20,000 nucleotides of DNA from Vicugna vicugna (taxonomy: Eukaryota). This document shows positions 14,150 to 20,000 of the stretch, piece after piece. Every line of letters starts with the position of its first letter. Positions within the stretch are counted from its first letter, which is position 1. Under the pieces are notes generated by a model. The model was not told the origin of the DNA. It saw only the letters and a list, made by a program, of their open reading frames with translations, and ran no database searches. The position numbers and the translations under genes are program-made. The stretch lies in NCBI GenBank assembly GCA_013265495.1, contig PNXW01000517.1, forward strand, positions 61,711 to 81,710, written 5' to 3'.

Positions 14150-15334
14150 TGAGGACTCCAAAGTCATGTCTATATTAATCAAATCAAAAAGCTTAAGTTA
14201 GCTTCAACATCAGATATCTGTTCAGTACTGAATAGTTCCCAGATCACATAAACCTAAAATTTATTCTGGCCAGTTTCTTTTAGATTTCTGAGTATTTATA
14301 AAAGTACTTAATTTCCTTTAAGCCAATTAAATTAAGCTTTTTTTTCAAATTAATTTTGGCAATGCCATATATTTACAACACACATACAGATATACACTAA
14401 CACAAAGAAACAGAGACTTCATGGATCCCATTCCAAAATTTCAGCCACGAACCAGGTATAACAATGTAAAATGAATCAGTTAACAAGAGAGGTTGGATTC
14501 AAATTGGATTCTGACAGATGGAACAAATAAAGGTCACCTGTCTAGACTTTTCACTAACATTTGTGGAGAAGACACTTAAGATTTCTATTGGTCCTTGACA
14601 AGTCAAATTCCAAATTCCCTACCCTCTTTGGTGAAATTTTTATTTTAAAAAGATGGGAGAAATAAGGGTTCCAGGAGAAAACCACGTAGAACATTTGCAT
14701 CTCAAAGGTATAGGAGGAGAAAGGCACATTCCTTCTAGGATGACGTTGTTCCCTGAAGGCCAGGAAAAAAAAATCCAAAATGCTCACAAGCATCTAAGCT
14801 AAGTAGGGAAGGTTCTCGGGATGGTAAAAAGATTGATGGGCTTCGGATAATTTCTGGACTCACACCTCTGGCACTGCGAAGACTAGATTTGTAAAACAAG
14901 GATAGTTGTTTTTCCTCAAACAACTGAGTGACCACCTCAATGATATCAAAGGACTGACACACACAGTCATGTATATTTGAATGTTTTATTTTCTCTCATT
15001 TAACTTAGCAGAGGGGGGCCTCCTCTCAAAACTTCTATCAGACCCAATACCAGCTACAGTCAGTTTAGGCAGACCCGTGGCCTCCCGTTTTGGTAATCTA
15101 TTTACACATACTTGTGACAATCCCCCCTGAGTTTCAGAGAATCTCTAATTATGGCCCTCAGTTTAGCCTTTGATCTGAAGTTCTTGCTTACAGCCTCATG
15201 TGACCCCATTTCTAACAGCAGCCTGATGATTTTCAGCCCGTGTTTTAGTCAATCTTATTCCTACCCCGTAGACACTTTTGACTTGAATTTCATCCTAGGT
15301 ACACAGAGTGGAGGCACTTGTGGTGTTACGAGTC
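14150..15334 (-). mobile_element. ERV1 (MER4-group) internal segment with short gag-CA-like relic
   Basis: MER4-int-like AT-rich sequence (AGCCAATTAAATTAAGCTTT...AAAATTTCAGCCACGAACCAGG). Minus 15173-15111 reads SKAKLRAIIRDSLKLRGDCHK, similar to the capsid motif KAELRAIVKDFP. Confidence 0.6.
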
Positions 15335-15615
15335 TCTGGGCCTGTCCACTCCAAGGCGAAGAGATACTGGGAGTCTGGTTGCAGGCAAATTCAAAAGAAA
15401 GCATCCTTTAGGTCAAGCACTGTGAACTAGTTTGCGTTCTCTGGGATTTGGGTCAATATAGGGTATGGACCCGGGAGAATTAGGTAAACTGGGACCACTG
15501 CCTCATTAACTGCCTTCAGGTCTTGGACAAAGAACTGACTTTTCTTTTTTTTTTTTTTTATGGCAGAATGGGGATAATATATGGAGTTTTGCAGGGTCAG
15601 AACAGCCCATATTTT
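15335..15615 (-). pseudogene. pol: ERV1 reverse transcriptase remnant, 3' part (downstream of the ATMIN insertion)
   Basis: Minus strand: KYGLF*PCKTPYIIPILP*KK...FVQDLKAVNEAVVPVYLILPGPYPILTQIPENAN*FTVLDLKDAFF*ICLQPDSQYLFALEW, the gamma-like RT motifs VQDL and LDLKDAFF. Confidence 0.9.
15595..15615. repeat. Left target-site duplication of the ATMIN retrocopy
   Basis: GGTCAGAACAGCCCATATTTT matches 19512-19532 GGTCAGAAGAGCCCGTATTTT at 19/21. Confidence 0.95.
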
Positions 15616-15684
15616 TTTTTTGTTTGTTTGTTTGTTTTGTTTTGTTTTGTTTTTTTTGGTTTTTTTTTAGAATTCTCACTTCTC

Positions 15685-15690
15685 TTTAAT
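15685..15690 (-). terminator. Polyadenylation signal ATTAAA of the ATMIN retrocopy
   Basis: TTTAAT on the plus strand, ~16 nt from the start of the poly(A) tail. Confidence 0.85.
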
Positions 15691-15838
15691 CACTGAGTTT
15701 AAGCTTTTACAAATAATAGAACAATTCAGGTAACTCAGGTTTTGAGGGGAAACAGTTCTTACTTACACATGAAGAACTATTACATGCTCCATTTTTCTGT
15801 AAATAACTCTACTGGCTGGGTTAACAAACGTCACAGAA

Positions 15839-15861
15839 ACACACACACACACACACACACA
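15839..15861. repeat. (CA)n microsatellite in the ATMIN 3' UTR copy
   Basis: Directly visible, about 11 units. Confidence 0.9.
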
Positions 15862-17646
15862 ATTTGTAAAGCCATAGATCACTGCATATATATTTACAAA
15901 AAGCCATAAACAAACATGCATTTCTCCTTTGCTAGGAGAACTTAAATTAAATGTTTGAACATTAAGGCAGTGATGATTCTAAAACATAATGAAATTCTAA
16001 GTTAAGGCTTTATGTTTGCTTTGAAACCCATATTCGTAGGCAACTGTGACCAAAGCATACTTTAATCTCAGGTTGAGTTCATCTGTCCAGGGTATGCTAT
16101 TTCTCCATATCAACAATCCTTCCACGGGATCAGAATTAGTAGCAACACCACTGATTTATTTTAATGAATTATTAGTCTCCTCCTTAGGTTTTATTTTGAG
16201 GATTTAGCCTCCAGCAGCATAAGCATGTGCCAAAGAAGGAACAGAGCATTTTTTGGGGTAAACTTAGAAAAATTTACAGGCTTCCCAGATTTTTACTTGC
16301 CTGAAAGTTGGCCAAAAATCAAGAATTCTGGATCTCCTAAATACAGAAAACCCTAAAAGCACACTTGACCACACACCCATCTCAAAACATAGATGTTATT
16401 ACTGAAGCAATCGTCTTCACCTCATTTTCTTTGAAGACTGGTATTACCCTCTCTAAAAAAATAAATAAAGCAACAAAATGCAGAATACCGTATCTTAGAT
16501 GGATCTATTCTATAACTGCTATCCTCAAGGCACAAATACTATCCTTGCTAGGCCAATGTGTTTCCTCATTTAAGGGAAAAATGAGAGGTGGATGAAAAGA
16601 AGATTCACTTTTAAGATAACTGTTGATTGCACTCTTGCCCTATTCAGCTTATGCAAAGTCTTGATGTTTAGGAAGGGATGTCCTTTTCCCTTAATGTTAT
16701 TTATTTATTTACTCACTTATTTAACACTTAGAGTGACAAAATTCAGCTAGTGGGCGTACTCTGGGGAGAGGCTCTGGAGCACCACCCTGGCTGTAGGGAG
16801 GAGGCGGCGGGATGCTCGTAGGACACACTCCAGTGTGAGCCAACAGGAGTGATTCCACAGCCCAGCATTTCCATAGCTGGGGGGACTTACTGTCATTTAG
16901 ACGAGAAGGATCACTATTTACACTAAGTGCTGGCTGCTACTTCTTGAAGCAATAATTTTACAGCAACATGGCTTGTGAGGAAGTACTGTAGTTACGTTGG
17001 TATCAATAACAGTTCATGTACAGAAAGGATGGCATTGACTATATGGAAACTGTCTCAAAAGCTAAAGACAACTGTAGTATTCCTTTGTGTCTTCAAATCA
17101 GGGAAGAATAAGATGACAAAGCAGATGAAGCTGCAGGCAACATGAGTCAAACCATCGAAGCGTTGGTGTTTCAATCTGATGGCGCAGTATCAGATCTCTT
17201 TAGATATTATCAGGAAACAGGAATTTCTAACAAGCACTGTCAAAAATATTTTAGGTGCAATTTAAGTCATACTTTGACTAAAATGTTTTGAAGATTTGAA
17301 AAGTTTGTACCCTAGTCCTGGTGAGCTTGGCTTCAGCTAAATGGCTAGATGGGTTTTAAAGGTGTGAAATACATTTTTTTTTAAAGAAGGGAAGACTACA
17401 CTGAAAGGGCAAATGTAGGCAACACAAAAACAATCATTTTTAGATCAACATCTTACACTTTATGATACACTCACAAATTTTTACACAAATTTCATGTTTA
17501 CAAGTACAAAAGGCAAAGAACCTCAAAGAATCGAAGTAACTGTATCATCAACTACATTCAATAGAGTTAATACTGTTGTCCCCACTCTCCACTTTCTAAA
17601 TCCAGAAGGGAACTGTAAATGCCACCCCACAATGTGGACTCCACTT

Positions 17647-19461
17647 TTAGAAGTTGGACACTGTGTGTAGTTCTGCACACGTCTGGGTTTCAACAGAGCT
17701 GAACTGAGATTCCATTGTGTTCCAGGCCAAGTCAGCTAGAAGAAAGTCGTCCATTGCTGTTTGAGTTTCATTGCTGGTGAAGAACAAGCTCCCCAAAGTT
17801 TCAAAGCCAGAATTCATGGTCTGTGTTTCTGTGCTGTTCAACTGAACTTTGCTTTCTAAAGCAGGTATGTTTTTAGCAGTGGAGATTCCTTCGGTTTGGG
17901 TCTCTGTGTCAGAGGAATCAGTACTCATGGAAAAGCTGGAGTGTTTCAGAATACTTCCCAGAGGCAGATGAGGGCTACTGTCTAAAAAGAAGTTTAAGTC
18001 CGTCTGTGTCTGTGTGTCAAACATTTCAAGGCCTAAGAAGTTAGAATTTCCCCTATAACCATAGGACTGGGCAGAGGTGTCTGCAAGTAAGAAGTCAGTT
18101 TGGGTCTCTATGTCCAGTGATTCCAGGACTGGCTCAGTGGTCATGGTGCTAAGCTCACTCTCTTCAGTTTGAGTCTGGATATTTGAGGCTGAAAAGAACT
18201 CTTCAATATCAAAATCAATTGCGGGATTCTGGGTTGGGCCAGATGGGAGCTGGCTGTCAGGTCCAGAATTTGTGTCAGACAAAAGACTACGATTGTCCAG
18301 TGTCTGACCAGGCAGATTACTCGACAAGATATTTTCTAGATCACTTAATAAATCTATGGTTTGGGTCTGATTATCTGTCATGTTCTGTGAAGGAAGCAGA
18401 CTATTCTGTGCACTGAAGTTTATAACTGGTGCGGATTTCTCAATATCTTGATGTAAAGTCTTAGGGTGGTTCTGAGGTAACAAACCATGAGTCACGGTCT
18501 CTGTTACCAAGCTGCTGCTTATAATACTGTCTGCAGAAACGCCGTATGATGAATGGACACTCTCAAAAATATCTCCACACATTACAGCTTGGTCCATCTG
18601 CACTCGATCATCTGTTGGACTTTGCATCCCACTGGTTTGAGTTTCTCTAGAGATCCCACCTGACTGGAAACAGGCATCTATAAACGCATCAGTCTGAGCA
18701 GCAATAGATGAGGTTACCTTAGAACTTGGAGGTGTTGTCAGAGTCTGCTTTCTGGCAGTAGAGTTGCAAGAGTCTTCAAAAGAAGCCACCAGCTTTATTT
18801 CTGAAGTTTCCAGTTCTTGAGTATCTGGTCTTGGGGTTTGTTGGCTGCTCAGTGATTCGACGGTCTTACTGGACAACTTCTGGTTGTGCAGGCAGTTTTC
18901 CATTTTCCTTTTCTTACTAGGTGGATCCCTGTGTTCTGCAGGGATCTCATGGCCAGTTCGGTAGACGTGGGACTGCAGTGCAGTTCTGCTGGCATAGGGA
19001 CAGCCGCACGTGCACTGGAAGGTCTTGCCACAGTCTTCCGCATGTCTTCTTAAGTCCCATTCAGTGCCGTAGGAGTTGCTGCACTTGCTGCATGTATGTT
19101 TCTTTTCAGCATGCATTTTCATAAAGTGCTGTTTTACGAGAGAAAATTGAGAAAATGGTCTGTCAGGGCCTCGAGGGCATCCTTCAATTGGACAACAGTA
19201 GCATTTCGGTACAGTTTTCAAATCTCTTCTTATTGTTGGATTCACTCTGCCATCCTGCAGGCGGTGGCTCTTGACCAGGTGCATGTTGAGCGCGGGGCTG
19301 GTGGGCAGGATCTTGCCGCAGCCGCGCACCGTGCACAGGATGTTGGTTCGCACCGCCCGGGACAGCTCGCTCACCGATGGCTGGATGAGCTCCCGGGCCG
19401 GCGGCGCCGGACCCGCCGGCTGCTGCCTCGCAGCTGCGAGTCGCGGCCGGCAGCCCCTCAA
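17647..19461 (-). CDS. ATMIN: Uninterrupted 604-codon ATMIN-derived ORF: 4 zinc fingers, NLS, TQT-motif cluster; no ATG at its start, first Met at codon 60 (19284)
   Basis: Near-identical to recalled human ATMIN (ELIQPSVSELSRAVRTNILC..., PPSKKRK, ...LAWNTMESQFSSVETQT..HTVSNF*). Identity as ATMIN is secure; whether it is translated is unknown. Confidence 0.55.
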   Translation of the reverse strand: MRGCRPRLAAARQQPAGPAPPARELIQPSVSELSRAVRTNILCTVRGCGKILPTSPALNMHLVKSHRLQDGRVNPTIRRDLKTVPKCYCCPIEGCPRGPDRPFSQFSLVKQHFMKMHAEKKHTCSKCSNSYGTEWDLRRHAEDCGKTFQCTCGCPYASRTALQSHVYRTGHEIPAEHRDPPSKKRKMENCLHNQKLSSKTVESLSSQQTPRPDTQELETSEIKLVASFEDSCNSTARKQTLTTPPSSKVTSSIAAQTDAFIDACFQSGGISRETQTSGMQSPTDDRVQMDQAVMCGDIFESVHSSYGVSADSIISSSLVTETVTHGLLPQNHPKTLHQDIEKSAPVINFSAQNSLLPSQNMTDNQTQTIDLLSDLENILSSNLPGQTLDNRSLLSDTNSGPDSQLPSGPTQNPAIDFDIEEFFSASNIQTQTEESELSTMTTEPVLESLDIETQTDFLLADTSAQSYGYRGNSNFLGLEMFDTQTQTDLNFFLDSSPHLPLGSILKHSSFSMSTDSSDTETQTEGISTAKNIPALESKVQLNSTETQTMNSGFETLGSLFFTSNETQTAMDDFLLADLAWNTMESQFSSVETQTCAELHTVSNF

Positions 19462-19511
19462 CCGACCGCCGCCTCGGAGGCCACCAAGGCTCCCGCACGG
19501 CAGTCGGCCGA
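19260..19511. promoter_or_regulatory. CpG-rich segment derived from ATMIN exon 1
   Basis: Very GC-rich with many intact CpGs, against an AT-rich, CpG-poor background. Confidence 0.5.
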
Positions 19512-19532
19512 GGTCAGAAGAGCCCGTATTTT
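19512..19532. repeat. Right target-site duplication plus L1 endonuclease site
   Basis: GGTCAGAAGAGCCCGTATTTT followed by AA gives TTTT/AA, the L1 ORF2p nicking consensus. Confidence 0.95.
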
Positions 19533-19690: not shown

Positions 19691-19859
19691 TTTCACCGTT
19701 TAAGTCCAGCAGGGATTCGGGGCTGGGGCAGGCAGCAGCGTGGGCAGGCTTGCTCACAGGGTCTGCGGGTATGTGGGTTTGATGTTTGGGTCTACATTAA
19801 AATTGTATGCTCACTTGACTTTCTTTTCTCCAGGGGAGAGCTCTAAAGAAGAGGAAATA

Positions 19860-20000
19860 GGGGATGGATACACCTCAAGTGGTAGAGTGCCTATTTAGCA
19901 TGCATGAGGTCCGGAGTTCAATCTCAAGTATCGCCTCTAAAGTCAATCAATCAACTTACCCTCCCAACAAAAAATATAATAAGTTAAGAAAAAAAAAAAA
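19860..20000 (+). mobile_element. tRNA-derived SINE, camelid Vic-1-like
   Basis: GGGGATGGATACACCTCAAGTGGTAGAGTGCCTATTTAGCATGCATGAGGTCCGGAGTTCAATC (A and B boxes), then an A-rich tail to the window end. Confidence 0.85.

Follow-up and report, generated by a model that had tools for sequence, protein, structure and literature searches.

Retrocopies that preserve alternative splice forms of their parent gene are, going by Shemesh et al. 2006, reportedly a known class. The locus described here lies in a stretch of 20,000 nucleotides (nt) of DNA from Vicugna vicugna (GenBank assembly GCA_013265495.1, contig PNXW01000517.1, positions 61,711 to 81,710 of the forward strand), referred to throughout as the window and numbered from its first letter. 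The minus strand of the window contains a processed retrocopy of ATMIN (ASCIZ/ZNF822), the gene of the ATM interactor, with an in-frame block of 177 codons missing from the large coding exon. The copied mRNA had very probably lost this block by splicing, as an exitron. Retrocopies as a class of alternative-splice records and exitrons are both already known, and the event is of an ordinary kind and a clean example of it.

Jurado et al. (2010, PMC2958817) describe two ATMIN/ASCIZ isoforms, an 823-residue form with four zinc fingers and a 667-residue form with two, and assign to exon D 601 of the 823 residues, with the nuclear localization signal, the core domain and the SQ/TQ cluster among them. 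In human ASCIZ, 11 functional LC8 sites were counted, the LC8-binding construct comprised residues 362-823, and ASCIZ activity was tuned by the number and spacing of the LC8/DYNLL1 sites (Clark et al. 2018, PMC5963919). The ATMIN splicing literature that was covered reported an alternative-promoter event and the 823- and 667-residue isoforms, with no mention of an exitron form. No published description of an ATMIN exitron form was found; the human exitron list of Marquez et al., which lay outside the comparison, may already catalogue one.

The open reading frame listing of the window gave an intronless ATMIN/ASCIZ frame of 604 codons on the minus strand (17647..19461), which ends in a TAA stop at 17649-17647 and starts with TTG, not ATG, the first in-frame ATG being codon 60. 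Three Pfam families matched the frame above their cut-offs (PF24757, E=5.7e-39; PF24761, E=1.7e-24; PF24759, E=2.2e-17). ASCIZ-type zinc fingers are followed by a TQT-rich C-terminal region with nine TQT matches, the arrangement of the ATMIN/ASCIZ family, and the nearest database relatives were mammalian 'ATM interactor' proteins, with the camel ATMIN models 99% identical. The two features on which the argument turns are given below, with a slash marking a joint here and in all later sequences.

17647..19461, minus strand: open frame with TTG start, ASCIZ zinc fingers, KKRK stretch and nine TQT matches
18724..18725, minus strand: putative exitron junction, CCTCCAAG/TTCTAAGG, in frame, codon AG/T = Ser

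At the junction the minus-strand sequence is ...ACACCTCCAAG/TTCTAAGG..., where 18725 is G and 18724 is T, or with wider flanks ...GACAACACCTCCAAG/TTCTAAGGTAACCTC... and ...ACACCTCCAAG/TTCTAAGGTAACC..., and the translation spanning it (...KQTLTTPPSSKVTSSIAAQ...; also ...KQTLTTPPSSKVTSS...) stays open across the joint. When aligned with full-length ATMIN from whale, deer, tiger, macaque and pheasant, the frame displayed a single internal gap, exactly at the junction, and was collinear over the rest. The size of the gap, taken from the two species in which both a long and a short form were seen, was 177 residues, corresponding to residues 287-463 of pig P0150 and 293-469 of dolphin P0129. A preliminary description of this DNA, made from its letters, had placed an in-frame junction at 18725/18724, in agreement with both the minus-strand bases and the open frame. 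It had also proposed a deletion of about 176 codons and 43 missing N-terminal residues. An in-frame block is indeed absent, but the estimate is one codon short of the 177 in pig and dolphin, and the frame lacks 40 rather than 43 residues compared to the 644-residue camel isoform X2.

The locus is a processed retrocopy, with the introns of the parent absent, a poly(A) tail preceded by its signal, and a target-site duplication at its ends. It is of L1 type and probably camelid-specific. Its parts, all on the minus strand, were located as follows.

15613..19511, minus strand: retrocopy body of ~3.9 kb, with 24 nt of 5' untranslated region (UTR), coding region, ~2 kb of 3' UTR and poly(A) tail
19512..19532, minus strand: 5' copy of the target-site duplication, AAAATACGGGCTCTTCTGACC, abutting the first mRNA-derived base
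18928..18929, minus strand: joint of exon 3 and exon 4 of the parental mRNA, ...GAACACAG/GGATCCACC...
15669..17646, minus strand: 3' UTR of the retrocopied mRNA, ~1978 nt
15685..15690, minus strand: ATTAAA polyadenylation signal, 17 nt before the tail
15613..15668, minus strand: degenerate poly(A) tail, 56 nt, 84% A
15595..15615, minus strand: 3' copy of the target-site duplication, AAAATATGGGCTGTTCTGACC, abutting the tail

The two 21-nt copies of the duplication are identical at 19 positions (90%), have a spacing of 3917 and bound exactly the mRNA-derived stretch. The 5' copy begins AAAA and is preceded by TT, as at an L1 endonuclease site. The start codon's position lies only 24 nt from the upstream repeat, which makes this an almost complete copy of ~3.9 kb. 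A (GT)n microsatellite run was seen near 15840-15862, within the retrocopied 3' UTR.

The same joint was present in gene models of the parental gene. The protein XP_032342727.1, 'ATM interactor isoform X2 [Camelus ferus]' (P0121; 644 residues, complete N-terminus, with a UniRef count covering two Camelus species), has the joint ...TTP/PSSKV... as in the window, and all 604 codons of the window frame aligned to it with 8 differences. Two dromedary GenBank models, P0005 (545 residues) and P0034 (503 residues), both have the joint as well. P0034 additionally skips a 42-residue exon, across which the window frame is uninterrupted, and the dromedary models therefore derive from a multi-exon gene. 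At six of the eight differing residues the derived state is in the window, while the camel models share their residue with pig, dolphin, deer, tiger and macaque; the camel models are thus not translations of the window locus. Copy and parent models can be told apart at codon 206 of the window frame (Ser in the copy, Asn in the models; ~120 nt upstream of the joint) and at codon 280 (Gln in the copy, Arg in the models; ~105 nt downstream of it). In dolphin, isoform X2 (P0001, 653 residues) equals X1 (P0129, 830 residues) exactly over 1-292 and 470-830 and is missing residues 293-469, so that a retained and a spliced form, differing by the segment alone, are both predicted for that species, with X2 predicted for camel (gene models in each case).

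A protein search with 80 residues around the junction returned 157 clusters, of which only four spanned the joint (at least 86% identity and at least 99% cover). These four contain five models, P0121, P0005, P0034, P0001 and the pig model P0027 (UniProt A0A8D1VBI4), the last of which has as its start the internal Met that also opens the copy's 545-codon frame. Four further proteins of near length and full cover at low identity (P0079, P0171, P0112, P0071) were rejected as junction carriers, having retained the segment, as were the 'ATM interactor-like' P0164 and P0069, which cover 74% of the junction region only, and P0201, which covers 57%. None of 22 matches among shorter proteins spanned the junction at high identity, and among the ATMIN relatives examined in the junction-region protein searches no second retrocopy with the junction was shown.

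Splice signals were read in pig DNA. A degenerate pattern for K-x-T-S-S-I-A-A-Q-T-D, the conserved peptide after the joint, was scanned in metagenomes, prokaryote genomes and viral contigs. The metagenome scan gave two loci, a 1420-nt pig contig (L001) and a bird contig (L002); the prokaryote-genome scan gave one, in a bacterial sigma-factor gene, discarded as a chance match; the viral-contig scan gave none. No camelid DNA was found in any of the three collections. The pig contig is one uninterrupted stretch from the acceptor of intron 3 through the whole block and beyond. Its intron ends ...TGTTTTCAG (...TTTTCAG) ahead of GGATCCACC, where the window has exon-3 coding sequence instead, and the alignment of the two begins at the joint of exons 3 and 4. 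It falls into a block of 205 nt with 185 identities and one of 600 nt with 549; the single gap separating them is ambiguous in position by a common AG only.

The block in the pig contig starts ...ACCACCTCCAAG/GTATCCTCAG... and ends ...CGCAGACTTTTTTGCCCAG/TTCTAAGGTG..., giving a donor CCAAG/GTATCC, in which the Arg codon is AGG, and an acceptor CTTTTTTGCCCAG/T, i.e., CTTTTTTGCCCAG/TTCTAAGG: a GT-AG pair with a pyrimidine tract. Splicing the contig in silico produced CCTCCAAG/TTCTAAGG, a 16-mer identical to the window. Between the two sites there are 524 nt at 2x coverage compared to the 531 expected from the pig protein, and because of this coverage the shortfall, a local 7-nt gap, is probably an assembly error. 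The 7 nt are missing around 700-760 of the contig compared to P0150, inside the exitron, and the frame is broken there. The segment has two properties of an exitron as defined by Marquez et al. (2015): it is wholly inside a protein-coding exon (the uninterrupted pig contig; exon D with 601 of 823 residues), and it has no stop codon and a length that is a multiple of 3 (177 residues in dolphin and pig, with the window frame open). In pig, canonical splice sites are seen at its ends, AAG/GTATCC ... CTTTTTTGCCCAG/T.

Two proposals of the preliminary description can be set against these results. It had predicted that the parental segment would have GT-AG ends, a pyrimidine tract and an Arg codon other than AGA, all of which were found in pig DNA (AGG; AAG/GTATCC ... 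CTTTTTTGCCCAG/T). Its suggestion that the copy is the fossil of an unannotated exitron-spliced isoform is supported as far as the spliced mRNA is concerned, given the pig signals and the junctions of the models, but the isoform is not unannotated, because RefSeq lists the form for Camelus ferus and dolphin.

An ordinary, exitron-containing mRNA could instead have been copied and its 531 nt lost without the spliceosome, either through template switching of the L1 reverse transcriptase or through a later short-homology deletion, for which a CCxAG microhomology had been put forward earlier. Schulz et al. (2021, PMC8240250) describe exitron-like deletions, termed 'falsitrons', that reverse transcriptases create in cDNA, and a homology of 2 nt (AG) is present at the pig breakpoints. 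Moreover, non-splicing deletions occurred in this copy, since a second internal deletion, in a GCG-rich stretch near its 5' end, shifts the frame. The 531-nt deletion, however, is in frame, and its breakpoints match to the base both the pig GT...AG pair with its pyrimidine tract and the junctions of the annotated isoforms in camel and dolphin. The falsitrons of Schulz et al. (2021) were selected for lacking GU-AG, and 35 of 57 had direct repeats of 3-16 nt, whereas the homology here is 2 nt with GT-AG in pig, no direct repeat of 4 nt or more overlaps both sites, and no common k-mer of at least 4 nt lies over the two. With no more than 2 nt of exact homology, and with annotated splice junctions of other lineages at the very same point, deletion at CCxAG is unlikely, and we regard loss without the spliceosome in either form as highly improbable.

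Several points weigh against exitron splicing in the camelid parent. Support for the isoform is drawn entirely from gene predictions, the underlying evidence for which is not open to inspection, and GT-AG ends in the camel parent would be an extrapolation from pig and from the existence of the RefSeq X2 model. Past position +3 the donor (GTATCC) is a weak one. Little weight is added by the pig model P0027: three of its substitutions are private, one of them replacing Cys with Phe in a zinc finger, so that its origin may be a retrocopy in pig or an assembly of poor quality. The junction was absent from the Logan- and ENA-derived proteins covered (none of the 22 short proteins and none in the 157-cluster search), and the supplements of the gastric-cancer exitron paper and the falsitron paper contained no ATMIN entry. 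A full-length camelid ATMIN protein was not among the matches listed, and both dromedary models are without the segment.

These last observations would also be expected if the camelid parental ATMIN lacked the segment in the genome, with no alternative splicing in camelids. All three camelid proteins (P0121, P0005, P0034) are without it, and neither the 120 matches listed nor the listed members of the clusters included a full-length camelid ATMIN. The name 'isoform X2' of the C. ferus protein, however, implies an X1, and 644 + 177 gives 821 residues, the usual artiodactyl length; full-length camel forms may hide in the 90%-identity clusters, for each of which 15 members were listed. In dolphin both forms come from one gene, and in pig the segment is present in the genome (L001), though the pig short form P0027 may be from elsewhere. 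Genomic loss in camelids seems to us very improbable. The exitron explanation is well supported, but not proven for camel.

Under the exitron explanation, a nearly full-length polyadenylated ATMIN mRNA would have been reverse-transcribed in L1-type fashion after removal of its three ordinary introns and, in addition, of the exitron, an in-frame optional intron of 177 codons in the large last exon. The exitron would run from the Arg codon of ...PP-R-YPQK... (donor AAG/GTAT) to the Pro-Ser codons of ...TQTFLP-S-SK... (acceptor YYYYYYGCCCAG/T). Its removal would cost the protein the 'core' region, two QTD motifs and one canonical TQT, while the zinc fingers, the KKRK stretch and nine TQT would stay in place. 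In the pig block there are two QTD motifs and a single TQT motif, ...SVHTQTFL, with which the block ends; given the nine TQT in the window frame, the short form therefore lacks what lies from KKRK to the main LC8 array and also the array's first sites. Retrocopies are inherited only if made in the germ line or early embryo, and so an exitron-spliced mRNA would have existed there in a camelid ancestor; from this germ-line origin we infer that the exitron-spliced form was expressed in the germ line. The copy itself has since decayed: its start codon is gone, a 5' deletion shifts the frame, and the zinc fingers have acquired derived changes.

Two features near the 5' end record this decay.

19485..19487, minus strand: former start codon, now TTG, followed by GTG GCC TCC GAG GCG GCG (xVASEAA compared to MAASEAA in camel X2)
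19462..19470, minus strand: second deletion junction, ~94 nt (31 codons + 1 nt) missing from the GC-rich N-terminal coding region, after which the native frame meets TGA

The native frame reads ...ASEAAVG and then stops, while the long frame resumes in the other phase at GRLRGCRPRL, residues 39-48 of P0121, the one protein from which the size of the second deletion was taken. This deletion, which may be due to reverse-transcriptase slippage, later deletion or collapse of a GC-rich assembly, is without sign of splicing, unlike the exitron joint. Five of the six copy-derived substitutions (N to T, I to R, K to R, F to C and K to T at codons 54, 72, 79, 87 and 123; window 19054-19302) are located in the zinc-finger region, each at a position on which the other aligned mammals agree, a distribution that fits relaxed constraint as judged from the alignment.

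A working retrogene could nevertheless start at the ATG of codon 60, from which a 545-residue ASCIZ is predicted, without the first zinc finger and the core and able to bind LC8/DYNLL1. The frame is open over 604 codons, with no stop or frameshift past the 5' deletion; the ATG-initiated frame of 545 codons has the same extent as dromedary P0005, and the nine TQT matches are intact. Against this stand the lost native start codon and frameshifted 5' coding region, the six derived amino-acid changes with their concentration in the zinc fingers, and a promoter that was not carried along, as the 5' UTR amounts to no more than 24 nt. The copy also adjoins a decayed reverse-transcriptase-like fragment, and at ~1.3% protein divergence an open frame would be expected by chance fairly often. 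We give a working retrogene very little credence. The copy is most likely a young pseudogene, presumably non-functional, with a long open frame that is due to its age.

The decayed reverse-transcriptase-like fragment (15318-15543, minus strand; ...VLDLKDAFF...) has two in-frame stops and lies directly downstream of the 3' duplication; its Pfam match to RVT_1 (E=0.0024) was below the gathering score. The retrocopy was apparently inserted into an old retroelement or next to one. Upstream of the insertion there is a stretch resembling a short interspersed nuclear element with a T-run (window 19860-20000, minus strand), and ARAGORN found no tRNA in 19700-20000. In the sequencing-run comparison, which was not used as evidence, 20 of 24 rows contained part of the stretch. 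'DNA?' runs under three organism labels had 0.75-0.85 of the sampled words, and nine runs (a fourth label or reproductive-tract samples; five of them RNA) all had 0.65, for which parent-only content is possible.

The bird contig contains a comparable segment. Positions 1114-1452 of L002 comprise 339 nt, in frame and without stops, reading GTAAGT...CAG, and their removal gives the ...NQGSV/VSLPIS... joint of whooping crane isoform X2 (P0094). A gap as in P0094 is seen in P0100, a model of the grey crowned crane, and the goose model P0095 has yet another joint at the protein level. These models suggest that birds, too, splice the corresponding part of the last ATMIN exon optionally, at other sites. 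Tentatively, a regulated exitron might have been kept in the ATMIN last exon across amniotes, with the short form a germline-expressed ASCIZ variant and the retrocopy, and possibly the P0027 locus, genomic records of its abundance in germ cells; we consider this possible but doubtful. The cetartiodactyl segment would then be 531 nt long, with GTATCC as a weak donor; that of cranes, 339 nt long, would have GTAAGT as a strong donor, and its acceptor would lie 13 codons upstream of the mammalian acceptor. Removal of either would take out the 'core' between the zinc fingers and the main LC8-binding array. If this holds, the short form would alter spacing in the ASCIZ-LC8 feedback loop and, in mammals, have one TQT site fewer.

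The retrocopy provides independent DNA-level evidence for an mRNA with this exact junction in past camelid germ cells and so backs a splice form otherwise known from automatic gene predictions. What that form lacks is the core, a poorly understood region of a transcription factor, and a natural core-less variant would be a simple test reagent. The locus is otherwise a routine processed pseudogene, and its main use is as a worked example of retrocopies validating exitrons, checked against reverse-transcription artefacts.

Compared to the ATMIN isoforms of Jurado et al. (PMC2958817), the gene is the same and the exitron lies within exon D, but the described isoforms differ N-terminally in zinc-finger number, whereas the window form differs inside exon D, with the core removed. 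The exitrons of Marquez et al. (2015, Genome Res 25:995, PMC4484396) resemble the ATMIN case in lying inside a coding exon with canonical signals, in the ATMIN case read in pig, with no stops and a length that is a multiple of 3, and also in their weaker splice sites, unusually long host exon, internally deleted protein and disordered region; the ATMIN case, in contrast, rests on annotation models and a retrocopy, not on reads. Like the splice-form retrocopies of Shemesh et al. 2006, the window has an L1-made copy of a mature mRNA that records a germ-line splice form, complete with target-site duplication and poly(A) tail, but the splice recorded is that of an exitron, not of a cassette exon or alternative splice site, and the host is a camelid. 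Finally, falsitrons, as presented by Schulz et al. (2021, PMC8240250), have in common with this retrocopy that an mRNA was reverse-transcribed into a copy with an internal stretch missing; they lack GU-AG and often have direct repeats, whereas the window junction matches a GT-AG pair with a pyrimidine tract in pig, with a homology of 2 nt.

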